Part shown: piece by piece, positions 18,754-57,866 of the stretch
How positions within the stretch are numbered: the stretch's first letter is position 1
Layout of the letters: each line of letters begins with the position of its first letter
From: Patescibacteria group bacterium
GTDB taxonomy: Bacteria; Patescibacteriota; Patescibacteriia; UBA10025; JAHIVO01
Direction: 5' to 3'
Length of the DNA stretch: 64,000 bases
NCBI GenBank assembly: GCA_041660605.1
Contig: JBAZWB010000001.1
Span: forward strand, 622,503 to 686,502
Program-made: the position numbers and the translations under genes
The notes under the pieces: model-generated
The model's database searches: none
The model's input: only the letters and a program-made list of their open reading frames with translations
Told to the model about the DNA's origin: nothing

Positions 18754-20382
18754 TTATATTTTTACGATCTGCCCAGGTTTCAATGTGTGTGAATTATTCA
18801 TCTTAGGCTGATGAGGACGAAAGTTATTTTTTGCTACAGGTTTAAATTTGGGTTTTTCTTGGATCGCCTCAGGATGCTTGTCGGGGCGCTTATTATAAAA
18901 ACTCTGTGGTTTTTGCATTAATGCCTGTTGCAAGGAAATTCCCTTATTACTGCTGTCCAGTGTAATGGTTTCCAATTTGCCTATTTCAATCTCTGTCTTT
19001 TTCTCAGGCTTATTGTGAAAATTAGGAGTACTTTTTGGATGGTTAAAGGCTGATTTTTTTTGAGGGGGTTTATCGTATCCCTTTTCTTCTTTCATTACTT
19101 CATCAACGCCGGTCCAGCGTACTATTTTCTCTTCTACAATTTTACGCGGTTTTGTATACCTTTCACGGGAAACTTTAACAACTTTTCCTTTGTTATTTGT
19201 TAAAGCTGCTTCCGGCGGTAACGTTGTTGCGGAAAATGGTTCAGAGGCAACACCATCAATCATTAATTTTAAATAAACATTATATTTCGTTAAATTCAAA
19301 AGATCATCTTCTGTAAAAGTAGGAAAAAATTCTTTTGCCAAAAATTCAGCATCTGCTGCACCGACCCTAAAGCACATTATGGTACCAACGTTACCAAAAA
19401 CCGCAGCTCTCACTTCTTCATCCAGCTGTTCGATGTATTGATGAGCAAGAACTAAACTAAGTCTGTATTTTCTCGCTTCAGATAAAATACTGGCAAAACT
19501 TTCTGTGGCAAAATTTTGAAATTCGTCTACATACAAATAAAAATCTTGCCTGTCCTTTTCTTCAATGTCAACGCGGCTCATAGCGGCCAATTGTATGCGG
19601 GTTATCATCATGGCGCCCAATAAGGAAGAGTTATCTTCACCAATTCTACCCTTGGATAAGTTAAGCAGTAATATCTTATGATTATCCATCAAATTTCGTA
19701 AATCGATGGTACTTTTTGGTTGTCCAACGATATTCCTGATGATTGCGCTTGAGAGGAACTGCCCCACTTTATTTTGAATAGGCGCTATCGCTTCGTTTCT
19801 AAAATTTGTATTGTAGTTTGCGTATTCATCTACCCAGAAACTTTTTACAATCGGATCAGTTAATTTGGATACTACTTTTTGCCTGTATCTTTTATCAACC
19901 AAAATTCTGGCAATGCCGAGCATCGTCGAGCCAGGAGATTCCAAAAGGGCTAAAATTGCGTTATTTAATATATATTCCATTCTAGCGCTCCAGACACCTT
20001 CCCATATTTTTGTGAAAACACCCATTAATCCGGAAGCAACTAAATGGCGCTGAGCCGGATCAACGCTTTCCAGGACATTAAAACCGATAGGAAAATCTAC
20101 ATCTGCCGGATTGAAATAAATTACGTCGTTAATACGATATGATGGGATATACTCAATTACTTTTTCAACTAGATCGCCGTGCGGATCAACTAGGGCCAGG
20201 CCGCGCCCAGATCTAATGTCAGAAATGACCATATTTTCCAAAACGGTAGTTTTCCCCATTCCAGTTTTACCGATTAAATACATATGCCGGCGCCGGTCGT
20301 CTTCTTTTATGCCAAAAACATTGTTCGCATTGCGAAAATTTGTTTTTGCAAAAGGCGTAATGTCGCTCTTATTATTTTCCAT
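18754..20382 (-). CDS. FtsK/HerA/TrwB-superfamily P-loop ATPase (DUF87 / T4SS-coupling-protein-like). The core is cytoplasmic and the C-terminus is a low-complexity tail.
   Basis: Walker A is LIGKTGMGKTTVL, followed by LVDPHGDL. Walker B is LYVDEFQNF and the arginine-finger/sensor region is ARKYRLSLVLAHQYIEQL. There is no TM helix. The C-terminal roughly 120 aa are K/P-rich. Confidence 0.65.
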   Translation of the reverse strand: MENNKSDITPFAKTNFRNANNVFGIKEDDRRRHMYLIGKTGMGKTTVLENMVISDIRSGRGLALVDPHGDLVEKVIEYIPSYRINDVIYFNPADVDFPIGFNVLESVDPAQRHLVASGLMGVFTKIWEGVWSARMEYILNNAILALLESPGSTMLGIARILVDKRYRQKVVSKLTDPIVKSFWVDEYANYNTNFRNEAIAPIQNKVGQFLSSAIIRNIVGQPKSTIDLRNLMDNHKILLLNLSKGRIGEDNSSLLGAMMITRIQLAAMSRVDIEEKDRQDFYLYVDEFQNFATESFASILSEARKYRLSLVLAHQYIEQLDEEVRAAVFGNVGTIMCFRVGAADAEFLAKEFFPTFTEDDLLNLTKYNVYLKLMIDGVASEPFSATTLPPEAALTNNKGKVVKVSRERYTKPRKIVEEKIVRWTGVDEVMKEEKGYDKPPQKKSAFNHPKSTPNFHNKPEKKTEIEIGKLETITLDSSNKGISLQQALMQKPQSFYNKRPDKHPEAIQEKPKFKPVAKNNFRPHQPKMNNSHTLKPGQIVKI

Positions 20383-20384
20383 AA

Positions 20385-21809
20385 TTAAGCAAATGGTAAA
20401 TTAACAGGCGGTGTACCTTTAGGTTCGGCAGTTGACGTCGGCTTACCAGAGGCAGGTTTAGATGGTTGTTTCGAAAAAACGCTTTCTTCTTCCATTGGTA
20501 ATCCCATAGGCGGAGTTGATTTTCTTGCGTCAACCGTCTGTACGGAAGGTACTTTTATGTCAATTTGTGGGAAATGCCATAATGTAGCCAATTCTTCTAT
20601 ATTCAGAACGAATCCCGGCCTGCCTCTTTTCATGCTTCTATATCTATAACCCCATAAAATTCTTCTAATTCTACCTAGTAATCTTGTTTTTATGAAATAG
20701 TAGTCAATTTTAGTCCTGGTTTTTTTATTAACAACAAAACCATTTAAATTCTGCGAAGTAAATTGCGCGAATGCGCCGTTTATTGCATACGTACCCTTAG
20801 ACTTATTAAATCTGTCTTTTGGTGCTGAATATATGTATCTAATTTTTGTTTTGAAGCCAAGCTTGCCGATTTTCATGCCAACTGCTTCTACCACCTCTTT
20901 TTCCTGGGGAGATAAATGCTGCATCATACTCGGCCATTCCCTCTCTTTTTTTTGCTTTTGTTCGCCCATTTCAGTAGTTGGGACAAATGTAGCGGTAAAT
21001 GATTCAGATAACCCCCGACCTATTTCCCTGGGAAAATACATCAGATCAACTCCTTTTTTATCAGATTTCTTGCCAATCAGCTTATTAATGAGTGCTAAAC
21101 CTTTTTTCCTCCATTCCTCTCCAACTGGCGCTATGATAATTTGTATCCATAAGCTCTCTCCGGGACCCATGCGACTCATAATTTCTAAAATTGAAGCCAT
21201 GGGATCCATTAATTTCTGCGATAAACTGTGCTCAAATAACGGATAAGTCCGTATCGGATATAAATCGGTATTTTGTAATTTGAATTCTGTCCCCCATATA
21301 TCATATTTAGGATGATAAAATTCTAAAGGTTTTGGTATCATATCAACATAATCCTCAACTTCGGTAATTTCAGCATCTGGATACTGCGCATAAACGGCCG
21401 CTTCAACTAAATCGCGAAACTTAACTGGAGTGCGAATTAAAAACTGGATATACCCTTCTATACTGACAATTTCCAAACTAAAGCTTGGCTGCGTATATCC
21501 TTTGATATATTTATCTTTTAAATTTCCAGATTTTTTTATGCCGTACAAATGAGAAAAAATATGTTCAACAGCCTTAGGACTTTGTTCATTATTTTTAGGA
21601 ATGTCAATTGCCAAAAGGACAAACTTCAAGGAACTATCATAACGATTGCGAATATACTCCTTATATGCTTCCCATAATCCCCAAAATATTACAGCTAGCA
21701 CGAAAATCCATCCGCCTTTGAGAAAAATAAAAACCATGGCACTTAACGGGTTTGAAGTGCTTGGCAGGGAGTTAAATAATGTTACCGGATCAAAAAGTAA
21801 AAAATTCAT
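20385..21809 (-). CDS. Hypothetical membrane-anchored protein, operonic partner of the ATPase
   Basis: One or two N-terminal TM helices (MVFIFLKGGWIFVLAVIFWGLW). There is a 2-nt spacing to the downstream ATPase and a 19-nt spacing from the upstream regulator. The tail is P/S/T-rich. I recognise no known domain. Confidence 0.45.
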   Translation of the reverse strand: MNFLLFDPVTLFNSLPSTSNPLSAMVFIFLKGGWIFVLAVIFWGLWEAYKEYIRNRYDSSLKFVLLAIDIPKNNEQSPKAVEHIFSHLYGIKKSGNLKDKYIKGYTQPSFSLEIVSIEGYIQFLIRTPVKFRDLVEAAVYAQYPDAEITEVEDYVDMIPKPLEFYHPKYDIWGTEFKLQNTDLYPIRTYPLFEHSLSQKLMDPMASILEIMSRMGPGESLWIQIIIAPVGEEWRKKGLALINKLIGKKSDKKGVDLMYFPREIGRGLSESFTATFVPTTEMGEQKQKKEREWPSMMQHLSPQEKEVVEAVGMKIGKLGFKTKIRYIYSAPKDRFNKSKGTYAINGAFAQFTSQNLNGFVVNKKTRTKIDYYFIKTRLLGRIRRILWGYRYRSMKRGRPGFVLNIEELATLWHFPQIDIKVPSVQTVDARKSTPPMGLPMEEESVFSKQPSKPASGKPTSTAEPKGTPPVNLPFA

Positions 21810-21828: not shown

Positions 21829-22944
21829 TTACTCCACTAATGCATATGTCCCATCCGAGAGTTTTTTGAATTTTGTTTTATCGGTTAGCGCTAAATGAAT
21901 GGTATTCTTTTTTACCAGTCTTTGTTCAAGTACTTTCTCAACTAAATCATCGCGCGTTAATGGTTTTTCATTTTTTTGAATAATCTCTTTCAATACGTTG
22001 GCCACTACCCCAGGCTTATATCCCCACTCTTTCAGAGCATAAATGCCTCGGCCGACTAGCACATATTGATCGTTTAATATAAGTTCGTTATGGACAGTCG
22101 GAGGATAGGCTTTTCTGGTGTCAAATTTTGCGTCATTTATTCTTTTTGCAATCTCCGTAAAATGAAGAGGTTTACCATATTTTTTTAAAATTAAATAAAT
22201 TTTATCATTCATTCTTTTCGGAATTATACTCCCCCACTCAATTAATCCATATTCGTTAAAAGGATTTTTAGATATTTTCGAGCTTATTTCCAGATATGAA
22301 TGAATCGCTTCTACAGACAGTTGGATCTGATTTTTTTGGTAAAACTCGGTTTTTTGAAATTCTGAAATTACGTCATCTAGAATTACCGGTTTACTTTTTT
22401 CCTGAATTATTCGAAGTAACTCATTAATGGATTCTTTCATCAATAATATTGGCGCATGCAATATCTGCCATGATTTTTTAAATTCAATACTGAGTTTGAT
22501 TTCTTTGAATTTATGCTTAAGTAATTCAGAAATGATAAATATAATATTCTGACGATTAATTGAAGTATCTCCAACCGCCTGTAATAAAAGTTTAAGCATC
22601 ATTTCTTGATTTATTACTCCGCCATATTGTTCCAAAACAGAAAAAATTGTAGCTTCAACTGGCGAAATAATGTCGTTGAAGTTCTTTATCTTTTTAATTT
22701 TTTTTATCCCCGTTGACTCAATCTGCCTTATTCGCTCTCTGGTCACCTGATATGTTTCTCCAATTTTTTCTAAAGTTTCTCTTTCTTTGCCTAGTAATCC
22801 ATGGCGTCTCCTCAATACATCCTCTTCCCGTGAAGTAAGATTTTTTAATAATAAAGAGACTACTTCCGTAGGATTAAATTGCTCAATCTCATTCGTTTTT
22901 TTACTGCTAATTATACGGTCTAAAATTGAATTATTTTGATCCAT
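21829..22944 (-). CDS. DNA-binding protein with a sigma-70 region 4-like HTH near the N-terminus and a HARE-HTH winged helix in the C-terminal region
   Basis: LTSREEDVLRRRHGLLGKERETLEKIGETYQVTRERIRQIESTGIKKIK matches sigma region 4. KPLHFTEIAKRINDAKFDTRKAYPPTVHNELILNDQYVLVGRGIYALKEWGY matches the HARE-HTH consensus. Confidence 0.55.
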   Translation of the reverse strand: MDQNNSILDRIISSKKTNEIEQFNPTEVVSLLLKNLTSREEDVLRRRHGLLGKERETLEKIGETYQVTRERIRQIESTGIKKIKKIKNFNDIISPVEATIFSVLEQYGGVINQEMMLKLLLQAVGDTSINRQNIIFIISELLKHKFKEIKLSIEFKKSWQILHAPILLMKESINELLRIIQEKSKPVILDDVISEFQKTEFYQKNQIQLSVEAIHSYLEISSKISKNPFNEYGLIEWGSIIPKRMNDKIYLILKKYGKPLHFTEIAKRINDAKFDTRKAYPPTVHNELILNDQYVLVGRGIYALKEWGYKPGVVANVLKEIIQKNEKPLTRDDLVEKVLEQRLVKKNTIHLALTDKTKFKKLSDGTYALVE

Positions 22945-23098: not shown

Positions 23099-24004
23099 TT
23101 ATTTGTTGGGTCTGAGTGAAAAATTTCTCCAAACTACAAGCAATGGGCTGGCAATGAATATAGATGAATATGTACCTGCAGTTATGCCGATCAGCAAAGC
23201 TAGAATGAAATACTGGATTGAACTTCCCCCGAATAAATACAGTGCCAGTAAAACTAATAATGTAGTCAATGATGTGTTTAGTGATCTAACCATCGTTTGA
23301 TTAACACTTTCATTTACCGTTTGTTCGAAAGTTTTTTCTGCATGCAATTTCAATCTTTCTCTTATTCTATCATAAACCACGATGGTGTCATGCACTGAGA
23401 ATCCCAAAACGGTAAGTAAAGCAGTGATAAATAATATATCGATCTCTACGTTAAAAAATTTTCCTAAAATTGCAAAGATCCCCACTACTATAAAAATATC
23501 ATGGACTAAAGCTATGACAGCACCCAATCCATACACCCATGGTTTAACGATATTGCCTGAAATTTTTCGAAAAGCAAAAGATATATAGAGAATTATCGAT
23601 AGTAAAACCAGTATCACAGCTATTATGGCTTTCTGTTTCAGCTCTTGCCCTATAATCGGGCCGATTGATTCAAAACTTCCTTCCTGTACATCAGGATATT
23701 TAATTTTTAATTTTGCTAAAATATCCTGATATGTCTGATTATCAATATTTTTAAGTCTGATTGTAAATTCGTTATTTCCTAGCGGCTGAACAAATATATT
23801 ATTGTCATTGGCAACTTCATTTACTAGGCTTTTGATATCACTGATTGACGGCTGTTCATTTGGGATTGTTACTCTGATCAAACTGCCACCAGTAAAATCG
23901 ATGCCCAGTTTCAAACCGCCCATGGCAATTGCAATAATGCCGGGAATCATAATAATCGCCGAAACTATAAACCAGATATTTCTTTTACCAATTAAATTAA
24001 ACAT
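23099..24004 (-). CDS. secF: Protein translocase subunit SecF
   Basis: LGIDFTGGSLIRV, followed by 6 TM helices. It is immediately downstream of secD. Confidence 0.9.
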   Translation of the reverse strand: MFNLIGKRNIWFIVSAIIMIPGIIAIAMGGLKLGIDFTGGSLIRVTIPNEQPSISDIKSLVNEVANDNNIFVQPLGNNEFTIRLKNIDNQTYQDILAKLKIKYPDVQEGSFESIGPIIGQELKQKAIIAVILVLLSIILYISFAFRKISGNIVKPWVYGLGAVIALVHDIFIVVGIFAILGKFFNVEIDILFITALLTVLGFSVHDTIVVYDRIRERLKLHAEKTFEQTVNESVNQTMVRSLNTSLTTLLVLLALYLFGGSSIQYFILALLIGITAGTYSSIFIASPLLVVWRNFSLRPNK

Positions 24005-24007
24005 AAA

Positions 24008-25687
24008 TTAACTCTGTTGAATTTTATTTTTAAGTGTTCGGCCAATTAATCCCAGATGCTTCTCAAGCCAGCCAGAAACCAGCAGTCGTAAAAACGTTCT
24101 GGTAACGGTAATTGCCGAAAACATGCTGACCAAAACACCGATACCCAGGGTTATAGCAAAGCCTTTAATAACACTAGTTCCGAACCAGGCCAGGATAAAA
24201 CACGTAATTAAGCTTGATATATTCGAATCACGGATTGAAAGCCAGGCCCGACTAAATCCTTCTTCAATTGCCAGACCTAAATTTTTACCATCTCTTAATT
24301 CTTCACGTGTGCGCTCAAAAATAAGTATATTTGCGTCTACGGCCATTCCGATTGATAATATAAAACCAGCGATTCCTGCCAAGGTTAAAGTGATGCCAGT
24401 TAATTTGAAAATTGAAACGGTAATTAAGGCATATATAAACAAGGCGATAACCGATATCAATCCTGGCAGGCGATAATAAACTATCATGAATATAGCCACC
24501 AAAGTTAAACCGATTACACCGGCTAATAAGCTTTTTTGTACTGATGCCTGGCCCAGTGTTGCGCCGATCGAATTTTGAGATACCAAAGTGATCGGTACCG
24601 GCAGAGCGCCGGCATTCAACCTCTGTACAAGCATTTTAGCTTCTTCAAGAGTAAATCCACCACCACCTGATATTACCGCACTACCATCTAAAATTGGCTC
24701 ATTCACTTTCGGTAAGGAGATCGGAGAACCATCCAAATATATGCCAACCACTTTACCGACATTTCGTTTTGTAATTTCAGCAAATAAATCCCTTCCTTCT
24801 GTATTAAATTCCAGCAAGACCTGGGGCTCATTTGTGTTTTGATCAAATTGGACGGAAGCGCGTTTTAATTCTTTACCCGAAAGTCCAGTATTGGTAAATT
24901 GCGTCTGCCCTGTAGTTGACTGTTTAGTAAATAGAATATGACTGGCGCTGACTTGATTGTCCTTTTCTCCAGTTTTTTTGATGATATGATAACCAAAATC
25001 CGTTTCTACGATCTCAGGATAGATTTCGTCAACTTTCATCTTATCAAAAACTACATTGGCAAATTCAGGCACCATCTGTTCTCTGGTAAAAAAGCCGAGA
25101 TCACCACCTTTTTTCTCTTGAGTTGTCTGATCGGTATTTCCCGGATCCTGCGAATATTGGTTAGCTAAAGCTGCAAAATCTGCGTTAGGCTTGAGTGCTT
25201 CCTGCAGAATTTCAGCCGCTTTTTGCTTAGCCTGAGCATTTGCATCGTCAATGGTTTTAATCTGATCAGCAGTAAGCGTGGTAGTAGTCTCCTCTTTAAA
25301 TTCCAAAAGAGGGGTCTCACCAATCATTTTTATTGCTTCATCGACATTTGTAACGCCAGCTAATTCCACAATAACCCGCCATTTTTCCCCTACTTTACTA
25401 GTTTGTATAACAGGCTCGGAAACGCCAAAAGCATTTACCCTGCGTTCAATTACGTCACGGACGCCATCAATAGAGGAGGCCTGGTCAGCGGCTGGAACTT
25501 GAGAAACATTCGCATCATATACTAATTGGGTTCCTCCCTGTAAATCCAAGCCTAAATGAATTTTTACTTCTTTAAAATAACTGCCAATATGGATATCCGG
25601 GCCTTTAGGATAAGCAAATAAACCGGCCAAAATAGCCAAAATAATAATACCCGCAAATGTCAGCCAGATTTTTTTCCTAAAACTCAT
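24008..25687 (-). CDS. secD: Protein translocase subunit SecD carrying a parvulin-like (PpiC-type) PPIase domain inserted in the periplasmic P1 head
   Basis: SecD motifs GLDLQGGTQLVYDANV, GETPLLEF and LNAGALPVP are present, with the RND-like TM bundle. Inside P1, roughly aa 140-250, lies DFAALANQYSQDPG...GGDLGFFTREQMVPEFANVVF...TDFGYHIIKK...SASHILF. Confidence 0.88.
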   Translation of the reverse strand: MSFRKKIWLTFAGIIILAILAGLFAYPKGPDIHIGSYFKEVKIHLGLDLQGGTQLVYDANVSQVPAADQASSIDGVRDVIERRVNAFGVSEPVIQTSKVGEKWRVIVELAGVTNVDEAIKMIGETPLLEFKEETTTTLTADQIKTIDDANAQAKQKAAEILQEALKPNADFAALANQYSQDPGNTDQTTQEKKGGDLGFFTREQMVPEFANVVFDKMKVDEIYPEIVETDFGYHIIKKTGEKDNQVSASHILFTKQSTTGQTQFTNTGLSGKELKRASVQFDQNTNEPQVLLEFNTEGRDLFAEITKRNVGKVVGIYLDGSPISLPKVNEPILDGSAVISGGGGFTLEEAKMLVQRLNAGALPVPITLVSQNSIGATLGQASVQKSLLAGVIGLTLVAIFMIVYYRLPGLISVIALFIYALITVSIFKLTGITLTLAGIAGFILSIGMAVDANILIFERTREELRDGKNLGLAIEEGFSRAWLSIRDSNISSLITCFILAWFGTSVIKGFAITLGIGVLVSMFSAITVTRTFLRLLVSGWLEKHLGLIGRTLKNKIQQS

Positions 25688-25780: not shown

Positions 25781-27187
25781 CTATGGCTGAACAATTACCG
25801 TTGTGCCAATAGATGTGAAATTATAGAGCCATTCTGCATCCGGATAAGCAATATTTACGCAGCCATGACTCATCTTATGTCCAAAATTGTTATGCCAATA
25901 GGCTCCATGCAATAACCGGCTGCCATCAAAACGCATGTTCCACAAAGTATTTGGTAAATAGTAATCCGGACCGGAATAAAGCTTTGAATAAATTTTTTGG
26001 CTGACCTTAAAATTTCCAGGCTGCGTATCCATTCCTGGGATTCCAGTTGAAACTAAAAAAGTTTTTAATAGCAGGCCGCCTTCGTAGGCCCACAATCTTT
26101 GTTCTGATATATCAACAAGAATTTTTGAAACTTTACCCTGATAATTTTTTTTATTTGGTATAGTTATTAGTTCATCATCTCCATCTCCATTAATGTCACC
26201 GCTTGCAATATTTACTCCGCCTCTGAAATCATTTTCATATGCAAAGAAATTTAGACTTTTCACTTCTCCATAAGCCTCAAAAGCTCTGACTTGCGGCCCC
26301 CCGCCTGTATTAGCTGCCGCGACTATTTCATCTAATCCGTCTCCGTCAATATCCGCACCGGCTAAATTTACCCCACCCATAAAATTTTGTGGAAAAGCTT
26401 TAAACTCGCCTAATGGCGGCTGATTAGCACCAACTTTAATTACTTTTATCCAGGCGGAGTCCTGGCTTTGAACACCGAGAATTAATTCATCTTCTATACC
26501 GCCATCAACATTAGCGACAGCCAGACTAACGCCGCCTGTAAAATCTGGATGAAATGGGTAGACATTAAAATCCAGCTTATCGCCATAACGATTAAAGATA
26601 TTTACTTTCGGTTCAGTATTATAAGCTGGAGCTACGATAATTTCTTTCAGTCCGCCTCCGTCAATATCCCCTACTGCAACATTAAATCCAGCTTTCATAT
26701 TTCTGTCATAGGCAAAAAATCCGGGAGTAAATACCGGTTCACCATATCTATTAAATACTCTAATATGGGCCGAGCCTTCTGATTTCGGTGCTGTTACTAT
26801 TTCCGCATTACCATCTCCATCCAAATCACCGCAAGCGACATTCACCCCTCCATGAAATTTGACGTCATAAGCAAAAAATCCGGGAGTAAAAACAGCGCTT
26901 CCCTTACTATCAAAAATTCTGACCTGAGGGCCTCCGCCTATACCGGCACTAACTACAATTTCATCGACACCATTCCCATCCAGATCACATATAGCAACCG
27001 ATCCGCCACCGTTAAAATTCTGTCCGAAAGGAGTAATACTATCCCGTATAGGAGAAGAATCAGCTTTAAATATTTTTATCTCTGTACTTCTTTCATCAAA
27101 CGCGCTAGCAATCCTAGGTAAAACAAAAAAACACGTTATTAATATAAATAATACGTATAATTTCAGCATTTTGCTGATTTTAGCCAT
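25781..27187 (-). CDS. Secreted FG-GAP/beta-propeller repeat protein fused to a C-terminal L,D-transpeptidase (YkuD) catalytic domain
   Basis: A signal peptide is present. Repeated GDLDGDGNAEIV, GDIDGGGLKEII, ADIDGDGLDEIV and GDINGDGDDELI motifs are calcium-binding FG-GAP-like. The C-terminus reads LHGAYWHNNFGHKMSHGCVNIAYPDAEWLY, the L,D-transpeptidase His...SHGC motif. Confidence 0.75.
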   Translation of the reverse strand: MAKISKMLKLYVLFILITCFFVLPRIASAFDERSTEIKIFKADSSPIRDSITPFGQNFNGGGSVAICDLDGNGVDEIVVSAGIGGGPQVRIFDSKGSAVFTPGFFAYDVKFHGGVNVACGDLDGDGNAEIVTAPKSEGSAHIRVFNRYGEPVFTPGFFAYDRNMKAGFNVAVGDIDGGGLKEIIVAPAYNTEPKVNIFNRYGDKLDFNVYPFHPDFTGGVSLAVANVDGGIEDELILGVQSQDSAWIKVIKVGANQPPLGEFKAFPQNFMGGVNLAGADIDGDGLDEIVAAANTGGGPQVRAFEAYGEVKSLNFFAYENDFRGGVNIASGDINGDGDDELITIPNKKNYQGKVSKILVDISEQRLWAYEGGLLLKTFLVSTGIPGMDTQPGNFKVSQKIYSKLYSGPDYYLPNTLWNMRFDGSRLLHGAYWHNNFGHKMSHGCVNIAYPDAEWLYNFTSIGTTVIVQP

Positions 27188-30876: not shown

Positions 30877-31331
30877 ACTTCTTCTTCAGAAATCACGCTT
30901 ATTCCATTATTTTTTAATAAAGCAGTTGTTACACCGTCATTTTTAACGCTTTTTTTTGAAAATGTCCCATCATAGATCCTGCCACTGCCACACGATGGAC
31001 TCCCCTGTTTTAAAATGGCTTTATGCGCATTATACATTTTAGCAATTTTCAAAACCTCGTTGGCTCCTTTTATAAACTCCACAGTTACTTCATTACCGTT
31101 ACTTTCGACAACCTTGGCTTTATTATTTAAAACATCCTGACCGCCTCCATTTTGTATTTCAGCATCTAGTCTTGGCGTAGTTTGTCCGCCCAGTTGTTCG
31201 GGACAGACTGGAATTATTATTTGTTTATTCAATAAATCAGCGACTTTATCGTTATAATTATTTTTTCCGTTATATTTGCAATTTATACCCAGCAAGCAGG
31301 CACTGCAAATTATAATACTTCTATTTTCCAT
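30873..31331 (-). CDS. DUF523 family protein (TudS-like, Cys-rich)
   Basis: IIICSACLLGINCKYNGKNNYND...IIIPVCPEQLGG matches DUF523. The start was chosen at internal Met (MENRSIIICSAC) because the longer ORF to 31376 overlaps the secA 3' end by 56 nt. Confidence 0.6.
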   Translation of the reverse strand: MENRSIIICSACLLGINCKYNGKNNYNDKVADLLNKQIIIPVCPEQLGGQTTPRLDAEIQNGGGQDVLNNKAKVVESNGNEVTVEFIKGANEVLKIAKMYNAHKAILKQGSPSCGSGRIYDGTFSKKSVKNDGVTTALLKNNGISVISEEEV

Positions 31332-34089
31332 GGCACTTCTTATATTTTTTTCCTGAACCACATGGACACAGATCATTTCGACCGACCTTCTTGCCTTTTA
31401 AATTAACTAAATTACCTGCGGCGGTATGTTGCGTATCGCCCACTTTTTCCTTAACTGCCGGTTGACTGGAAGAATCTCGTTTGGTACTCATATTCTGATA
31501 AGGACTGGAAACAACCTGATCAGATGTTTTTGCCGGGGCAATAAGTTGCTGGCGTCTGGTAGCCATTGGAGTAACTGTCGAAGGCTGGCCTAAATTGACT
31601 TTAAAAATAGTATAAACAACATTCTTCTGAATATTATTAATCAATTCGTTAAAAAGATTGTAAGCTTCTTTTTTATATTCAACCAACGGATCTCTTTGGC
31701 CATAACCGCGCAGACCTATGCCGCGTCTGAGATGATCCACCATATCCAGATGCTCAATCCATAAAGTATCGATGGCGCGTAAATAAACCGCCATCTCTAT
31801 ATTTTTCATCATCACAGGGTTGTTAATCTTAGTTTCCAGATTATCATATGACAGATTCGCCAATTTCAAGAGATATTGGATTATCGTTGTCCTGGCTGCG
31901 GCATCCTGCTGTTTGTCGCCAGCTTTTTCTCTGATATCCTCCAGCCTTATACGATTTTCCAGGGCCACTGGAAAAATTGTATCAATTACTTCATAAATTT
32001 CATCTAAATTCCACTGATTTTCATTATCTGCTGAGGTGTGGAACGAGACCACTTGTTCAATTTCACTTTCAACCAGGTCTATTATTTTATCTCTCAGTCT
32101 GATCTCCTTTCCTGACTCATCTTTCATTCCTGATTCAGTTACTTCCAATATTTCATTGCGGCGCTTGTATATTACTTCCCGATGTTTATTTATAACATCG
32201 TCATATTCCACTAAATGTTTTCTGATGTCAAAATTATGGCCCTCAACTTTTTTTTGCGCGCTTTCAATGGATTTGGAGATCAAGCGGTTTTCAATTGGCA
32301 TGTCTTCCGGCAGTCCCAATTTGTCCATCATGCTTTTCATTCTGTCGGATCCGAATATTCTTAAGAGATCATCTTCCATAGAAACAAAAAACTGCGAAGA
32401 ACCGGGATCTCCCTGCCTGCCTGCGCGACCGCGCAATTGATTGTCAATTCTACGTGATTCGTGTCTTTCCGTGCCAAGGACATGCAAACCGCCTAATTTT
32501 ATAACTTCCGCCTGTTCATTTTTATCCGGATGCGGTCCGCCTAAAATAATGTCAACACCACGACCGGCCATATTTGTGGCCACCGTCACTGCCCCCTTTT
32601 TGCCTGCCTGAGCTAAAAACATAGCTTCTTTTTCATGATTCTTTGCATTTAATACGTTATGTTTGATCCCCTCTCTTTCCAGCAATTGACTGATGATTTC
32701 ATTTTTCTCTATTGAAATGGTGCCAACTAAAATCGGCTGGCCCAATTCGGTGCGAATTTTTATTTCCTTAACCAAGGCCCTGAATTTTCCAATTTCATTT
32801 TTATAAATTGAATCAGTCGAGTCTTTTCTTACCATTGGCTGATTTGTGGGAATTTCCACAACTTCTAGGGTGTATATTTTATGAAATTCTTCAGCTTCTG
32901 TCGCAGCCGTACCCGTCATACCGGCTAATTTTTTGTACATGCGGAAGTAATTTTGAAAGGTGATGGTGGCCATGGTCTGGCTTTCCTGTTTTATCTCTAC
33001 TCCTTCCTTTGCCTCTATAGCCTGATGGAGCCCTTCGGAATACCTCCTGCCATACATTAGCCGGCCGGTAAATTCATCAACTATTATTACCTCCCCTTCT
33101 TTCACGACATAATCCTTATCCTTTTGAAAAAGGGCTTTGGCTTTTAGCGATTGTTCAATGTGATGGACGGTTTCAATGCCTTCTGCTTGATAAATATTTT
33201 CGATACCCAACATTTTTTCCATTTTAGCAATTCCAATTTCCGTCAAAGTTGATGCCCTCATTTTTTCGTCAATATTATAATCTGTGTTTTCTTCCAATTG
33301 GCCCACATGCTGGGCAAATTTATAATACTTGTCGGTAGATTCTTCTGCCGGCGAGGAAATGATCAGCGGCGTGCGTGCTTCATCGATAAGTATGCTGTCA
33401 ACTTCGTCGACAATGGCAAAATTTAAATCTCTTTGAACTTTATATTTCATTGTCGGCACCATATTGTCTCGCAAATAATCAAATCCAAATTCATTGTTAG
33501 TGCCATAAGTTATGTCAGCCAAATACGCATCCCTTCGTTCGATTAACTTCAAATGTGCCAAACGTTCATCCGTAACGTCCTTTTCGCTGTAATTTTCGTC
33601 AAAAATAAAAGCTTGCTCATGCGTGATGCAGGCAACCTTCAATCCTAAAAAATTAAGTGCGACTCCATACCAGCCGGCGTCTCTTTTTGCCAAATAATCA
33701 TTAACCGTAACTATATGTACTCCTTTGCCCTCTAACGCATTTAGGTATGCGGAAATGGCGGCTGATAAAGTTTTGCCTTCACCAGTCTTTTGTTCAGCAA
33801 TTTTCCCCTGATGAAGGACTATAGCCGCCATCAGCTGTACGTCATAGGCTCTTTGCTTGACTGTTCTTTTTATCGCTTCTCTGATCACGGCGCAAGATTC
33901 GGGCAAAATCTCGTCAATTTTTTTACCCTGGCTAAGTTCTTCTTTGAATTGTTGTGTTTTTTTTCTTAAATCTTGGTCATTTAAAGAAGAAACTTGCTTT
34001 TCAAATGAATTAATTTTATCAATAAAAGGACGTAAATTTTTTATTACGTTTTTGTTGCTACTGCCAAGTAAGTTAGTTAAAAAAGACAT
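31321..34089 (-). CDS. secA: Protein translocase ATPase SecA
   Basis: A full-length SecA with DEAD motor domains, PPXD and HSD, and the C-terminal zinc finger CPCGSGKKYKKCHGK. Confidence 0.95.
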   Translation of the reverse strand: MSFLTNLLGSSNKNVIKNLRPFIDKINSFEKQVSSLNDQDLRKKTQQFKEELSQGKKIDEILPESCAVIREAIKRTVKQRAYDVQLMAAIVLHQGKIAEQKTGEGKTLSAAISAYLNALEGKGVHIVTVNDYLAKRDAGWYGVALNFLGLKVACITHEQAFIFDENYSEKDVTDERLAHLKLIERRDAYLADITYGTNNEFGFDYLRDNMVPTMKYKVQRDLNFAIVDEVDSILIDEARTPLIISSPAEESTDKYYKFAQHVGQLEENTDYNIDEKMRASTLTEIGIAKMEKMLGIENIYQAEGIETVHHIEQSLKAKALFQKDKDYVVKEGEVIIVDEFTGRLMYGRRYSEGLHQAIEAKEGVEIKQESQTMATITFQNYFRMYKKLAGMTGTAATEAEEFHKIYTLEVVEIPTNQPMVRKDSTDSIYKNEIGKFRALVKEIKIRTELGQPILVGTISIEKNEIISQLLEREGIKHNVLNAKNHEKEAMFLAQAGKKGAVTVATNMAGRGVDIILGGPHPDKNEQAEVIKLGGLHVLGTERHESRRIDNQLRGRAGRQGDPGSSQFFVSMEDDLLRIFGSDRMKSMMDKLGLPEDMPIENRLISKSIESAQKKVEGHNFDIRKHLVEYDDVINKHREVIYKRRNEILEVTESGMKDESGKEIRLRDKIIDLVESEIEQVVSFHTSADNENQWNLDEIYEVIDTIFPVALENRIRLEDIREKAGDKQQDAAARTTIIQYLLKLANLSYDNLETKINNPVMMKNIEMAVYLRAIDTLWIEHLDMVDHLRRGIGLRGYGQRDPLVEYKKEAYNLFNELINNIQKNVVYTIFKVNLGQPSTVTPMATRRQQLIAPAKTSDQVVSSPYQNMSTKRDSSSQPAVKEKVGDTQHTAAGNLVNLKGKKVGRNDLCPCGSGKKYKKCHGK

Positions 34090-50154: not shown

Positions 50155-51888
50155 ATGATACCTAATAAAGAAATAAAAACCATCCTAGAAGCGACTAAAG
50201 CTGTTCCGGAAGAACAGCTTATTGAGGCATGGAAAAAAAATGAAATGGATAACGGGGATTTGGCTAGTTACCTGATAAATAAGAACATTATATCCGAGAA
50301 TATACTCTACGAAACAGCCGGAAATTATTACAAAATTCCTTTCATTGATTTACGGCGGATGAGCATCCGGAAAGACATATTAACGCTTATACCCGAGACT
50401 ATCGTTCAAACATACCAAATTGTCGCTTTTGACAAGGATGAAACTACTTTAAAAGTCGCTTCTGTAGATCCAAAAAATTTACAAATCATTGAATTTTTAA
50501 AGAAAAAAACCGGCTTAGCAATAAAAATACATATTACTACTCCCTCAAGCATTAAAGAAGTTCTATCGTTATTTCATAAGGGGCTATCTTCGGAATTTAA
50601 AAAAATCACTAAAGGTGACCTGCTTGGCGAAGGAGAAACTAAAACTGAAGATCTGAAGCAGCTGGCTCAAGATTTACCAATCGTCAGAATCGTAGACACC
50701 TTACTGGAATATGCAATTTTCGAGGGTGCTTCTGATATACATATAGAGCCAACCGAAAATGACATTTTAGTACGATACAGAGTCGATGGAATACTCAGGG
50801 AAGTAATGCGTCTCCCAAAAAACTTACAGCCGGGAATTATTGCGCGCATTAAAATACTTTCCAATTTAAAAATAGACGAACATCGATTACCCCAGGACGG
50901 CCGTTTCAAAATTTCTACCAGTGAATATAAGATTGCTTTCCGCGTTTCAATCATTCCTGTTTTTGACGGTGAAAAAATCGTTCTGCGCTTGTTGAATGAA
51001 TCCGCAAAAATTTTAACTCTTGAGCAAGTTGGGCTGCAGTTAAAGGCACTAGAAGCCGTAAATTTAAATCTAAGCAAGCCCCAGGGTATGATCTTGGTTA
51101 CCGGCCCTACGGGAAGCGGAAAAACTACCACCCTATATACCATTCTTAATATTTTAAATGACCCAAAAGTTAACATCGCCACGATTGAAGACCCTATTGA
51201 ATACCGCATGGCGAGAGTAAATCAAAGCCAGGTAAATCCAAAAATCGGCTTTACTTTTGCCGGCGGTCTCAGATCACTACTGCGCCAGGATCCCAATATT
51301 ATAATGGTCGGAGAAATTCGCGATGGCGAAACCGCTGAAATCGCCACCCATGCCGCTATGACCGGCCACTTGGTTTTATCAACATTGCATACCAATGACG
51401 CAGTTACCACTTTACCACGGCTTGAGGAAATGGGAGTACCACCGTTTTTGGTGGCCTCTACCACGAATATTGTTATAGCCCAGCGGCTAGTAAGAAAAAT
51501 TTGCATGAATTGCATCCACAGCTATACTTTAACAAAAAAGGCCGTGGACGAGTTAAAGAAAAAAATCGACCTGGGCTCAATTTTCAATGTTCTGGAGAGC
51601 CAGGGCATAATTCTTTCTTCAAAAACTCCGATAGAATCACTATTATTTTATAAAGGCAAAGGATGCAAACAATGCAATAACACAGGCTATAAAGGCCGGA
51701 TTGGCATTTTTGAAGTTGTGGAAATTACCAGTCAAATAGCGCAAATGATTACAGAAAAAACTTCAGCAGCAAAAATATTAGAACACGCCAGATCAAAAGG
51801 CATGCTGACTATGATTGAGGATGGTTTCATCAAAGCAAAAAATGGTGTAACTACGATTGAAGAAATATTAAGGGCAACTAAAGAATAA
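50155..51888 (+). CDS. pilB: Type IV pilus assembly ATPase PilB (GspE family)
   Basis: A GSPII_E N-terminal domain is followed by Walker A GPTGSGKTTTLY and the Asp and His boxes. A tetracysteine CMNC...CKQC motif is present. Confidence 0.9.
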   Translation: MIPNKEIKTILEATKAVPEEQLIEAWKKNEMDNGDLASYLINKNIISENILYETAGNYYKIPFIDLRRMSIRKDILTLIPETIVQTYQIVAFDKDETTLKVASVDPKNLQIIEFLKKKTGLAIKIHITTPSSIKEVLSLFHKGLSSEFKKITKGDLLGEGETKTEDLKQLAQDLPIVRIVDTLLEYAIFEGASDIHIEPTENDILVRYRVDGILREVMRLPKNLQPGIIARIKILSNLKIDEHRLPQDGRFKISTSEYKIAFRVSIIPVFDGEKIVLRLLNESAKILTLEQVGLQLKALEAVNLNLSKPQGMILVTGPTGSGKTTTLYTILNILNDPKVNIATIEDPIEYRMARVNQSQVNPKIGFTFAGGLRSLLRQDPNIIMVGEIRDGETAEIATHAAMTGHLVLSTLHTNDAVTTLPRLEEMGVPPFLVASTTNIVIAQRLVRKICMNCIHSYTLTKKAVDELKKKIDLGSIFNVLESQGIILSSKTPIESLLFYKGKGCKQCNNTGYKGRIGIFEVVEITSQIAQMITEKTSAAKILEHARSKGMLTMIEDGFIKAKNGVTTIEEILRATKE

Positions 51889-51890
51889 TT

Positions 51891-53108
51891 ATGTCAGAAT
51901 TCAACTACACTGCCAGAACACAGGATGGCCAATTAAAAAAGGATCGGATTCGCATCAAGGACAAGAAAGCTCTGGCCGAATACCTGAAAAATCAAAATCT
52001 AATTTTAACTTCTTCGAAAGAAATTAAAAAAGGAGGGAGGTTTTCCCTGCAAAATCTTCTGGATAATTTATCCAGCGTCCCTATCGTTCAAAAAATATTT
52101 TTTACCCAAAATCTTTCTATCATGGTAAAAACCGGATTTTCACTCGCCGCTGCCCTAAAAACTCTGGCTCTGCAAACCACCAATAAAAAATTCCGTAATA
52201 TTTTGATAGAGATTCAGCAGGACGTAGAAAGCGGTATTTCATTTTCCAGCGCCTTGGCAAAATATCCGAAAGTTTTTCCGGAACTTTTTGTCAATATGAT
52301 TTCGGCTGGTGAAGCCAGCGGTAAACTTGATGAAATACTGATACACCTCACTGTTCAAATGAAAAAAGATCATACCATAATTTCTAAAGTAAGGTCAGCC
52401 ATGATGTATCCCTCGGTAATCGTGGTAGCCATGGTTGGTATTGGCGTAGTTATGCTGATAACAGTCATACCGCAAATGTCCTCAATTTATGCCGAAGGCG
52501 GCACTGAATTACCTTTACCAACTAAAATTTTACTGGGATTCAGCAGTTTTGTTTTAAATCAAGGTGTTTTCCTTTTGATTGCCGTATTTATTTTACTGAT
52601 TTTATTTATTAGATTAAAAAAGACTAAAAAGGGCAAACTGCTTTTGCATAAATTTCTTTTGAAACTGCCAATTTTTGGCGCGATAATCGTTAAAATTAAT
52701 ATTACTCGTTTCAGCAGGACGTTAAGTTCACTTTTAAAAACTGACATTCCAATCGTACAAACCCTACAGATCATTTCCAAGACTTTAGGCAATATATATT
52801 TCAAAAACGCCCTTATTAATGCTTCAGATAAGGTAAAAAAAGGTATCAGCATCTCAAAAACATTAGAACAGACGCCAAAACTATTTTCGCCCTTAATCAC
52901 GCAAATGATCAATATAGGCGAAGAAAGCGGTTCATTGGACACTATCTCCGAACAGATAGCGAACTTTTACGAAGAAGACGTTGACCAAACGATGTCTTCA
53001 TTGTCAACGATTATTGAGCCAATTTTAATGCTGATAATCGGAGCAGTAGTCGCTTTTGTCGCCCTCTCCGTATTGATGCCCATGTATGGATTGGTTCAAG
53101 CAATATAA
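51891..53108 (+). CDS. pilC: Type IV pilus inner-membrane platform protein PilC (GspF family)
   Basis: Two T2SSF repeats and three TM helices, immediately after pilB. Confidence 0.9.
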   Translation: MSEFNYTARTQDGQLKKDRIRIKDKKALAEYLKNQNLILTSSKEIKKGGRFSLQNLLDNLSSVPIVQKIFFTQNLSIMVKTGFSLAAALKTLALQTTNKKFRNILIEIQQDVESGISFSSALAKYPKVFPELFVNMISAGEASGKLDEILIHLTVQMKKDHTIISKVRSAMMYPSVIVVAMVGIGVVMLITVIPQMSSIYAEGGTELPLPTKILLGFSSFVLNQGVFLLIAVFILLILFIRLKKTKKGKLLLHKFLLKLPIFGAIIVKINITRFSRTLSSLLKTDIPIVQTLQIISKTLGNIYFKNALINASDKVKKGISISKTLEQTPKLFSPLITQMINIGEESGSLDTISEQIANFYEEDVDQTMSSLSTIIEPILMLIIGAVVAFVALSVLMPMYGLVQAI

Positions 53109-53109
53109 A

Positions 53110-55401
53110 ATGAAAAAAAATCATTTAAATAATCAGCGCGGTTATTCATTGCCGGAAGTTCTCATCGTACTTCTGGTTTTTACCGGGATGTTCATAGTCA
53201 TGCTGAATCTCTTCCAAAATTCGATAAAACAGCTGAACATCGCCCGGGCTAAAATTGTAGCCATTGAGCTTGGCAATGAACAGATGGAAATTTTAAGGAA
53301 CCTCCAGTACAGCGATGTCGGGGTGACCGGCAGCTCCCCTAACGGTACCATACCGGCTTCACAGGAATTGACCCGTTCAAACATCAAATTTAAAATCGAA
53401 ACGGAAATAAAGTATATCGATGATCCATTTGACGGCTGTGTCGGTGAAATTCCCGGCGAGCCCGGCAAATCCCGCTGCGCTGACGGAACCATAGTCGATA
53501 AAGTCCCTGATATACCCGCCAATAGCAATAATCCAGCAGATTATAAAAAAGCTAATATTGAGATAAGCTGGACGGAAAGCTACCCGGGCAAGCCAATTCA
53601 GCTGTCAACCATCATTGCCCCAAAAGGACTGGAGGGAGATACCACTAAAGGATTTATGCTGGTGACTATTTTTAACTCCGCTGGCGATCCTGTAGTAAAC
53701 GCTGATGTGGAAGTTATTAACAATACCCTGGTCCCGGCGTTTGATTATCATGGAAAAACGGATATCTATGGCACCGTGCAGTTGTACGACCTTGAACCGG
53801 CTGAAGACAGCTACATAGTCAAGGCCAGCTATGATGCGGAAAATTACAGCCATGACCAAACCTGCGCCCAGGACGACGCGGGAACCGGCTGCAGCGACAG
53901 TACGGGCAATCCCCTACCAATCAAACAAAACCTGACCATTTCAGCCGGCCATAACGAGGAAATAAGTTTTGCCATAGATAAACTAAGCAATCTCTCAGTC
54001 AACAGCTATACGGATAATTGTACCGCTTTGCCAAATATTGATTTGACCCTGAGCGGCGATAAAAAAATAAGCCAACCGCCGACCAGCTATTTAAAAAATG
54101 TTTTAAATTTCGTCACCAACGGTTCTGGCCAGACAAATTTACCGGCAGTTGAATGGGATTTGTACGATTTGCTGGTCAATACGCCTGGTTATGATATTGC
54201 CGGCGTAAACCATGACCTAGCCTTAAACGTCCTGCCTGACACCAGCATCGTGCTGAACGTGCTGTTGGCGCCTCATACCAGCAATTCTCTGCTATTAACC
54301 GTAAAAGACAATAATGGCACCAATTTATCCAACGCCAGCGTCAGGCTGAGAAAAGCTGATTATGATGAAACAAAAATAACCGGTCATGGGTTTATGCAGC
54401 AAACCGACTGGCTTGGCGGCAGCGGCCAGGAAAATTTTATTGATGATTCGACAAAATATTATTCTGACAACGGTAATATTGACAACAACACGAGCGGTGA
54501 GATTAGCCTTAAAAAGATTTCCTTGAATCCTTCTTTCAACGAAACTTTTGACTCAAGTACTTACCAAGACGCTGCTAATACTACCGCGGATTGGAACACT
54601 GCCGACCTGGAATTAAAGCTGCCAACTGTCAGTGGTGAATATCCAGTCGGCGTCATGCACCACGCCCAGACGACAATTATTAATTCCCAACATGGCAGGA
54701 TCGTTTCTGCCACCTTGAATGCCACTGAAGAGCTGAATGGACAATCAATCCTATATTTCCTCTCCGCCGACGGTGGAACGAACTTTGAACCTGTCAGCTT
54801 AGGCACTCCTTACGATTTCATGAATTCAGGCAGCGATTTACGGTGGCGTACGGAATTGATTTCTTCCGAAATCGATAAGACCCCAATAGTAAAAGATTTT
54901 ACGGTCAGCTATACGCTGGAATATTATGAGCAAAGCGGCGAGCTTATATCCTCAACTTTTGACTTAGGCTCGACAGCTGATTTTTCTTCCATTAACTGGG
55001 AGCCTAGCAGCCAGCCGGTGGAGACTGGTGCGGAAAACGTTAAAATCCAAATCGCCACAAATAACGATAATAGTACGTGGAATTTTACTGGTCCAGACGG
55101 CACCGGCTCTACCTTTTATAGCATAAATAATTCCACTATCAACAGCGCCAGCAATGGAAACCGCTATGTCAGGTACAAAGCCATACTCTCGACAGAAGAT
55201 GTTTACTTTACTCCAGCGCTCAGCAATTTAAGAATAGGCTATACGCAGGAATGCTTTCCGCCAGGCCAAGTTTTTTACAGAGATTTAACAAACGACACCT
55301 ACTCTATGGAAATTAAGCTTGCCGGGTTTGAAGTTTATTCGGCTAATGTCGAAATTAACGGGTATGTGACCCAAACTGTCCAATTGATTCCCACTTTATA
55401 A
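53110..55401 (+). CDS. Giant pilin-like protein with a prepilin-type N-terminus and beta-sandwich (CarboxypepD_reg-like) repeats. It is a candidate pilus tip or adhesin subunit.
   Basis: The class III signal is MKKNHLNNQRG|YSLPEVLIVLLVF, with Glu at +5. The 760-aa body includes VTIFNSAGDPVVNADVEVIN and LLLTVKDNNGTNLSNASVRL motifs. The start was set at 53110 to avoid overlap with pilC. Confidence 0.65.
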   Translation: MKKNHLNNQRGYSLPEVLIVLLVFTGMFIVMLNLFQNSIKQLNIARAKIVAIELGNEQMEILRNLQYSDVGVTGSSPNGTIPASQELTRSNIKFKIETEIKYIDDPFDGCVGEIPGEPGKSRCADGTIVDKVPDIPANSNNPADYKKANIEISWTESYPGKPIQLSTIIAPKGLEGDTTKGFMLVTIFNSAGDPVVNADVEVINNTLVPAFDYHGKTDIYGTVQLYDLEPAEDSYIVKASYDAENYSHDQTCAQDDAGTGCSDSTGNPLPIKQNLTISAGHNEEISFAIDKLSNLSVNSYTDNCTALPNIDLTLSGDKKISQPPTSYLKNVLNFVTNGSGQTNLPAVEWDLYDLLVNTPGYDIAGVNHDLALNVLPDTSIVLNVLLAPHTSNSLLLTVKDNNGTNLSNASVRLRKADYDETKITGHGFMQQTDWLGGSGQENFIDDSTKYYSDNGNIDNNTSGEISLKKISLNPSFNETFDSSTYQDAANTTADWNTADLELKLPTVSGEYPVGVMHHAQTTIINSQHGRIVSATLNATEELNGQSILYFLSADGGTNFEPVSLGTPYDFMNSGSDLRWRTELISSEIDKTPIVKDFTVSYTLEYYEQSGELISSTFDLGSTADFSSINWEPSSQPVETGAENVKIQIATNNDNSTWNFTGPDGTGSTFYSINNSTINSASNGNRYVRYKAILSTEDVYFTPALSNLRIGYTQECFPPGQVFYRDLTNDTYSMEIKLAGFEVYSANVEINGYVTQTVQLIPTL

Positions 55402-55413
55402 TAAAATACTACC

Positions 55414-56025
55414 TTGCTAATAATGAAAAATAAATCCGGATTTACACTGGTTGAAATAGTTGCCGTTATTTTCATCCTGACCTTAATCGGCATTGGTTTG
55501 GCAAGTTTTTCATTTTGGGGATATCGGTTATGGCATATCACCCAAGACCAAATTCACGCGCAGGATGAAGCCAGGGCGGCTTTTAAAAACATTGTGGGTG
55601 AAATCAGGGAAATGCAGATTTCAGATAATGGCTCTTACGCATTGGATACTGTACAGCCGAATACCATCATTTTTTACGCCAATGTGGACAGCGACACCAA
55701 AAGGGAAAAAGTAAAATACGAATTAGTAGACGGCACGTTAATCAGGTGGTATGAAAAATCTGACGCTTCCGTACCGCCGGCTTATCCAGCCTTCACTGAG
55801 GCTAATAAAATTATCGTAGCCCAAAATATTTTGAATACGGATATTTTCCAGTATTATGACGACACGTTCAATGGCAGTACGCCACCCTTGCCGCAACCAG
55901 TCCAGCTGAATGACGTTAGATTGGTTAAAATCCATTTATCGATAGATTACGATCCAGAGCGAACTCCTGCCCCGCTTGAGCTTGAGACTAACATCGCACT
56001 GAGGAATTTAAAGGACAATTTATGA
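55414..56025 (+). CDS. Minor pilin / pseudopilin-like protein
   Basis: The prepilin motif is MLIMKNKSG|FTLVEIVAVIFIL, with Glu at +5. Confidence 0.7.
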   Translation: MLIMKNKSGFTLVEIVAVIFILTLIGIGLASFSFWGYRLWHITQDQIHAQDEARAAFKNIVGEIREMQISDNGSYALDTVQPNTIIFYANVDSDTKREKVKYELVDGTLIRWYEKSDASVPPAYPAFTEANKIIVAQNILNTDIFQYYDDTFNGSTPPLPQPVQLNDVRLVKIHLSIDYDPERTPAPLELETNIALRNLKDNL

Positions 56026-57857: not shown

Positions 57858-57866
57858 TAAGATTTT

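Follow-up and report, generated by a model that had tools for sequence, protein, structure and literature searches.

SecDF is a motor driven by ions; its P1 head swings and binds the chain as it emerges. The hand-over from SecYEG translocation to folding on the outside is hard to show, and the contacts of SecDF with PpiD, SurA and PrsA-like proteins rest on crosslinks and low-resolution maps. PpiD, together with YfgM, acts as a periplasmic chaperone at the exit of SecYEG; it is anchored in the membrane and has a parvulin domain. It photo-crosslinks to residue D359 of the P1 head, and release of the VemP arrest requires both PpiD and SecDF (PMC7793623); PpiD/YfgM has been located on SecYEG (PMC9643414). 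In Mycoplasma, the Sec translocon carries a dome of PrsA-like peptidyl-prolyl isomerase (PPIase) lipoproteins, which crosslink to SecD. Here we analyze the secD gene in a stretch of 64,000 nucleotides from a Patescibacteria group bacterium (contig JBAZWB010000001.1; the whole stretch is called the window below). The P1 region of its product almost certainly contains a genuine, conserved and circularly permuted parvulin domain.

The gene is an open reading frame (ORF) of 559 amino acids at 24008–25687; it and all other features of the window given below lie on the minus strand unless stated otherwise. The protein scores 372.8 bits against the TIGR01129 secD model (cut-off 244.4; residues 45–533), and a Foldseek search with the full AlphaFold2 (AF2) model returned the SecDF structures 5xan and 3aqp as best matches. 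With canonical SecD and SecDF proteins (T. thermophilus 3AQP, D. radiodurans 5XAN, E. coli 5MG3) it shares the first transmembrane helix (TM1), the base and head of P1, the RND-like bundle, the transmembrane aspartate and a downstream SecF. The N-terminal transmembrane helix comprises residues 3–25 (25613–25681), as seen in the AF2 model, with the topology given by the alignment to T. thermophilus SecDF. The N-terminal block of the P1 base (residues 74–133; 25289–25468) matches Pfam SecD_1st (E 1.7e-16) and ends in GETPLLEFKEE, where the model has a strand at 128–135. The P1-head block (residues 266–364; 24596–24892) matches SecDF_P1_head (E 2e-25, profile positions 18–114) and aligns with T. 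thermophilus SecDF from residue 160. The bundle TM2–6 (residues 368–535; 24083–24586; Pfam SecD_SecF_C) carries D451, in GMAVDANILIFER. This residue aligns with D340 of T. thermophilus SecDF, in GAAVDGNVLSFER, and is invariant in the 135 sequences of our alignment A1. D340 is the conserved proton-pathway aspartate of the transmembrane bundle, and an aspartate at this position is essential in SecDF. secF (301 amino acids; 23099–24004; SecD_SecF_C at E 5e-59 and Sec_GG) lies 3 nucleotides downstream of secD, and the two genes are likewise adjacent in two other loci, L003 and L040.

Pfam, AF2 and Foldseek therefore all describe the topology of SecD: TM1, a large extracytoplasmic P1 made of base and head, and five RND-type transmembrane helices. 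Since every defining feature that could be examined was found, we assign the protein to the SecD family. Stimulation of export that depends on the proton motive force (PMF) is a family trait, and it would be expected here by family membership. In the AF2 secondary structure the helix at 3–25 is followed, from residue 380 to 543, by the helices of the transmembrane part; the N-terminal helix and the bundle past residue 380 thus place the inserted domain outside the cytoplasm.

The solved SecDF structures lack the ~96–113-residue parvulin that the window SecD has between P1 base and head. In the alignment to 3AQP, residues 39–133 correspond to T. thermophilus 29–120 and residues 269–537 to 160–426, which leaves 135 residues where Thermus has 39, a difference of about 96 amino acids. 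The insert is about 113 amino acids longer than the matching segment of the insert-less Saccharibacteria SecD of L040, which reads PLLEFK, 22 amino acids, TALTGRYIERAQLEF, where the window SecD reads PLLEFK, 135 amino acids, TGLSGKELKRASVQF. When residues 136–258, the whole inserted domain (24914–25282), were removed in silico, the SecD_1st and P1_head matches were unchanged and stood 9 residues apart. The deletion and the alignments together locate the parvulin exactly at the passage from P1 base to P1 head. An earlier note, made from the letters alone, had placed a parvulin-like insert of roughly 105 amino acids at 24940–25270. This interval corresponds to A140–S249, from the first helix to one residue before the histidine of the displaced strand, and the length is a fair estimate of the ~96–113 extra residues measured. 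The strings quoted there (GETPLLEF, DFAALANQYSQDPG, KKGGDLGFFTREQMVPEFANVVF, ETDFGYHIIKK, SASHILF, VQFDQNTNEPQVLLEF and LNAGALPVP) all occur in the translation of the 24008–25687 ORF, and the alignment with canonical SecD that it proposed for delimiting the insertion puts the extra residues between the P1-base and P1-head blocks, as it had supposed.

Both Pfam Rotamase_3 (73.8 bits, cut-off 22.5, E 2e-20) and Pfam Rotamase (71.2 bits, cut-off 21.7, E 1.5e-19) match residues 147–239, and phmmer finds the solved parvulins of PrsA, PpiC and SurA at E values of 1e-8 to 1e-14. By these scores, the parvulin similarity already noticed by eye is far beyond chance. The core, matched by both Rotamase profiles, runs from α1 to β4 in canonical order (residues 152–242; 24962–25234), homology to the parvulin profile beginning at about residue 152. 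It contains D181, L197, M205, F209, T229 and H234. The displaced strand β1′ (QVSASHILFT, residues 245–254; 24926–24955), identified from the translation, from the hairpin that it forms in the model after strand 232–242 and from its match to β1 of a second profile copy, bears H250. The catalytic set and the proline pocket are thus present, D181 occupying the position of Pin1 C113 and of the PrsA aspartate. Among 129 single-module homologs, H234 and T/S229 are conserved in 100%, L197 and F209 in 97%, H250 in 95%, D181 in 87% and M205 in 69%. Column identity is 0.62 in the parvulin core, slightly below the 0.71 of the P1 head. The insert is a parvulin whose active site is intact, and isomerase activity is predicted from its residues. 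The SecD ORF has no SurA_N or related Pfam domain at E ≤ 1, and no second parvulin gene is found in the 64-kb window.

The AF2 prediction that the earlier note had recommended gives the insert parvulin secondary structure and a hairpin between β4 and β1′. For the full protein (alignment of 135 sequences), the mean predicted local distance difference test score (pLDDT) is 84.3 and the predicted template-modeling score (pTM) is 0.57, with a pLDDT of 88–95 in the insert; the domain alone (residues 136–258, 42 sequences) reaches 96.4 and 0.88, respectively. The modeled domain opens with a long helix at residues 140–165 (25193–25270). The C-terminal half of this helix is parvulin α1, and its N-terminal half is an extension that links the domain to the P1 base. 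It is followed by a helix at 171–178, a strand at 196–200 (β2), a helix at 207–216, a short β3 and a strand at 232–242 (β4). A two-residue turn then leads into strand 245–254 (β1′), which pairs with β4 in the hairpin. The predicted fold agrees with the four-stranded antiparallel sheet, in the order 3-4-1-2, and the four helices of a parvulin.

The order of these elements along the chain differs from that of canonical parvulins: it is α3-β2-α4-β3-β4-β1′, where the canonical order is β1-α3-β2-α4-β3-β4. The Rotamase_3 match does not start until position 30 of the 116-position profile, which means that the N-terminal side lacks the opening strand; QVSASHILFT begins eight residues past FGYHIIKK. 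When this tail was moved ahead of the core, the Rotamase_3 match widened to positions 14–114 and rose from 75.0 to 79.6 bits. The same exchange was applied to the 129 homologs, with a hidden Markov model (HMM) built from free 93-residue parvulins. It gained 6.6 bits on average, versus 2.1 bits for a shuffled tail, and shifted the HMM start from 14 to 4; relatedness among the homologs inflates the nominal p-value. On a duplicated (2 × 93) canonical profile, the native insert aligns unbroken over positions 14–112 and scores 99.9 bits, versus 84.3 for the single profile. The alignment passes the end of the first copy into β1 of the second, and 125 of the 129 homologs cross the junction in this way. 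Since the insert is homologous to parvulins but lacks their canonical order, we consider it a circular permutant. The permutation suggested in the earlier note from the position of SASHILF after FGYHIIK is borne out by the duplicated profile, the exchanged tail and the modeled hairpin.

The junction itself may indicate how the permuted unit arose. It is nearly gapless, the profile reading fGyhiikktGek and then mvskvrashilvek where the window has FGYHIIKKTGEK-DNQVSASHILFTKQ; FGYHIIKKTGEK followed by DNQVSASHILF matches the C-terminal end of a PpiC-like parvulin that runs on into the N-terminal end of another. Such a unit would remain if a parvulin were duplicated in tandem and the first strand and the second core were then lost. 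Free tandem parvulins with β4-linker-β1 junctions of this kind exist. In SurA P1-P2 and in the protein P0122, the junction is like FGYHIIKK...SASHILF of the window; these proteins have two full domains, whereas the window has one core and the first strand of the next copy. The permuted unit is what would be expected if a tandem parvulin had been shortened at either end, and tandem parvulins are its likely evolutionary precursor, as judged from the sequences.

The known parvulin proteins that come closest to the insert differ from it in several respects. PpiD of E. coli, with its partner YfgM, is a separate protein with its own transmembrane anchor and a SurA_N-like domain, whereas the window parvulin is a covalent part of SecD. 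The PpiD parvulin has the canonical strand order and is reportedly inactive; the window parvulin is permuted and keeps its catalytic residues. PrsA of Firmicutes, to which the Mdp/Mpn444 dome proteins on the Mycoplasma SecDF are similar, is a dimeric lipoprotein that combines a canonical parvulin with an N/C chaperone domain and associates non-covalently with Sec. The essential periplasmic PPIase of Bacteroides fragilis (8HM3/8HM4), a SurA-like tandem parvulin, is a soluble chaperone with an N-domain and a degenerate second parvulin; a strand also precedes its first core, reading VEVQIITF in the Parabacteroides orthologue. The insert may work like PrsA, SurA or PpiD but is not one of them, because it lacks a SurA_N-type chaperone domain.

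The fusion is not a peculiarity of the window. Our homolog and prevalence figures come from best-scoring lists, comprising the 120 closest homologs and the 150 best cluster representatives. Rotamase domains are present in all of the 120 closest SecD homologs (58–72% identity). These are mostly unnamed metagenomic sequences; those with names belong to metagenome-assembled genomes (MAGs) of Patescibacteria, Kerfeldbacteria and Nomurabacteria, on contigs of up to 1.3 Mb, and are annotated as "SecD" only. This leaves an annotation gap, the parvulin-bearing proteins being labelled simply as SecD. The survey of SecD homologs that the earlier note had suggested was also extended to the 150 best cluster representatives at 50% identity, of which 63 have the parvulin insert and 87 are ordinary SecD. 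Among the species-genome matches listed, most of which are free parvulins, about 13–15 loci have both the parvulin and the P1 head, a count that shows taxonomic breadth and not prevalence. Full-length matches listed in this collection come from Buchananbacteria, Komeilibacteria, Moranbacteria, Parcubacteria and unclassified Patescibacteria, and a match in Peregrinibacteria is cut by the contig end. Full or partial parvulin/P1-head matches to SecD of the Patescibacteria type also occur in MAG contigs named "uncultured Gammaproteobacteria bacterium" (L008, L011, L013, L016 and L017); these labels are probably wrong.

The parvulin-bearing SecD proteins fall into three groups, all with the insertion at the identical SecD site. 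The first has a single module and 550–590 amino acids, as in the window. The second has two modules in 650–705 amino acids: a degenerate parvulin-like core, a complete canonical parvulin that opens with KASHILI, and an extra terminal strand. The third consists of SecDF fusions of ~1000–1100 amino acids. Two-module examples are P0242, P0244, P0249, P0261 and P0265 (650–705 amino acids) and P0267, P0273, P0289 and others (1000–1100 amino acids), some of which are SecD-SecF fusions. Their terminal strand mostly lacks the histidine, and an intact parvulin core follows the KASHILI histidine strand. This pattern of co-conservation suggests that the two-module insert may be nested, with an active canonical parvulin inside a degenerate permuted one.

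Permuted parvulins also occur outside SecD. A search with the insert alone against a 5.8-billion-protein set gave 323 candidates, mostly short free parvulins, which served as the source of canonical parvulins; it missed the SecD homologs. In a Saccharimonadales locus (L019, 5326–6402), a 358-amino-acid membrane-anchored protein combines SurA_N_3 and Rotamase. Its parvulin ends in core...YGYHIIKVTNKKDDQVQASHILIKG and has no histidine strand ahead of the first helix. The histidine strand is found only after β4 in 111 of the 120 closest relatives of this protein (P0391–P0510), whose names point to Saccharimonadia, Parcubacteria and other Patescibacteria, with three from other phyla; PrsA is the label that some sources give them. 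These free PrsA-like foldases of Saccharimonadia and Patescibacteria (~350 amino acids) have the same permuted order, core...YGYHIIKV, 8 amino acids, QASHILIKG, and come from the same superphylum. They differ from the SecD insert in that they stand alone, are anchored at the N-terminus and have a SurA_N-like domain, which the insert lacks. The Saccharibacteria lineage represented by L040 has a SecD without the insert. The core identity of the SecD inserts is 48.7% with the free PrsA-like parvulins of the candidate phyla radiation (CPR) versus 45.7% with canonical parvulins, and nearest neighbours are mixed. The occurrence of the module in both protein types indicates that Patescibacteria put it to two uses, one in free foldases of the PrsA type and one within SecD.

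We propose, as the best explanation and one that we hold to be likely, that the permuted parvulin of SecD acts on emerging chains. In the predicted fold, the chain runs from the base strand PLLEFKEE through the 26-residue helix into the parvulin core (α1–α3, β2, α4, β3, β4). A tight hairpin then supplies the missing central strand β1′ with the first catalytic histidine, and the P1 head starts about 7 residues on. The parvulin is tethered by both ends at the hinge between SecD base and head. It would sit next to the P1 head, which binds substrate and is driven by the PMF, at a height of a few nanometres over the exit of SecYEG. In this place it may bind emerging unfolded chains at Xaa-Pro sites and isomerise them between cis and trans, and/or it may work as a holdase against backsliding and aggregation. 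The insert would do in cis what PpiD in E. coli, PrsA in Firmicutes and the PrsA-like dome proteins in Mycoplasma do in trans. By this analogy, a substrate-directed foldase or holdase function is fairly probable, catalysis being the less certain part. The sequences themselves show the architecture, the permutation, its conservation and its distribution, and the three-dimensional fold is predicted; that the domain is catalytic, that it acts on substrates during translocation and that it is coupled to the movement of the head is what we infer.

A different possibility is that the insert is a binding or chaperone module with the parvulin fold and no meaningful isomerase activity, providing a larger capture surface or a clamp against backsliding. 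A non-catalytic role of this kind has been proposed for the inactive parvulin domains of PpiD and SurA P1. Unlike these known inactive parvulins, however, the single-module form keeps the His/Asp/Thr/His set and the hydrophobic proline pocket, and we regard a purely non-catalytic insert as unlikely. It is also conceivable, though quite doubtful, that the parvulin is part of the power stroke, its proline cleft gripping the chain while the PMF-driven swing of the P1 head pulls. In such a pull-and-fold scheme, SecDF would mechanically time binding, isomerisation and release, and the permuted connectivity, with both tethers at one pole by the hinge, would transmit force.

The substrate could instead be SecD itself, with the parvulin acting in cis on a proline of the hinge or head (for example, in GETPLLEF or LPVP) and gating the swing between the F-form and I-form. 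The insertion coincides exactly with the connection between base and head; in alignment A1, P126 does not vary, and conservation is 90% or higher at P363 and P365. However, the same prolines are conserved in insert-less SecD, which works without a built-in isomerase, and this self-directed role seems very improbable. Still less plausible is a truncated, three-stranded and non-permuted parvulin, with SASHILF as the first strand of the P1 head. The Pfam P1_head match does lack the first 17 profile positions, so that a head element is unaccounted for. We reject this reading because the strand aligns to parvulin β1 with the conserved histidine, because its hairpin with β4 forms in the domain-only model in the absence of the P1 head (pLDDT 96), and because 111 of 120 free PrsA-like proteins, which have no SecD head, carry this tail strand behind the parvulin as well. 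A chimeric assembly, frameshift or mis-called ORF fusing a parvulin gene to secD can practically be dismissed, since the ORF is uninterrupted with SecD sequence on both sides of the insert, the same architecture occurs in all 120 closest homologs from independent samples, contigs of 0.3–1.3 Mb among them, and loci of the genome collection show it with conserved synteny.

The neighbourhood of secD is partly conserved. The order secA-secD-secF-sigma70_r4/HARE-HTH is common to the window and to L003, on a 947-kb contig. In the window, secA (31321–34089) has the same orientation as secD and lies ~5.6 kb upstream of it, whereas it directly adjoins secD in L003; this difference in distance indicates a loose clustering of the Sec genes in the lineage. 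Directly downstream of secF is a gene for a 371-amino-acid protein with an N-terminal Sigma70 region-4 helix-turn-helix (HTH) and a HARE-HTH domain (21829–22944). A gene of this kind occupies the same place in L003 (8515–9624), on a distant contig, so its linkage to secDF is conserved.

Other genes of the window deserve mention. Just upstream of secD, a 468-amino-acid protein (25781–27187) combines FG-GAP repeats with the catalytic domain of a YkuD L,D-transpeptidase, which is unusual for an enzyme that cross-links the cell wall. A homologue of TrwB/TraG-type coupling proteins (542 amino acids) adjoins a 474-amino-acid ORF without a Pfam match (18754–21809), and the two may be a pair with a role in conjugation or DNA transfer, here in a small CPR genome. 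On the plus strand, a type IV pilus cluster (50155–58925, especially 52000–58000) encodes PilB-like T2SSE, PilC-like T2SSF and PilM proteins. Its ORFs at 53086–55401 and 56022–57857 are large and have weak or no family matches, and the G+C content of this stretch is 0.41–0.46 versus ~0.32–0.37 elsewhere.

In the full-text literature open to our searches, the CIRPIN paper included, we found neither a fusion of SecD with a parvulin nor a permuted parvulin described. Precomputed Pfam annotation does show the domain pair; databases therefore contain it, whereas the literature searched apparently does not. What is new is a natural, conserved circular permutant in the parvulin family, which would be useful for studies of folding and catalysis. 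A foldase covalently fused to the mobile P1 region of SecD also provides independent support for a functional contact between SecDF and foldases. The fused protein would offer a simpler, stoichiometrically defined system for structural work, single-molecule pulling and PPIase studies, and it points to how extracytoplasmic folding may be organized in the genome-reduced Patescibacteria.
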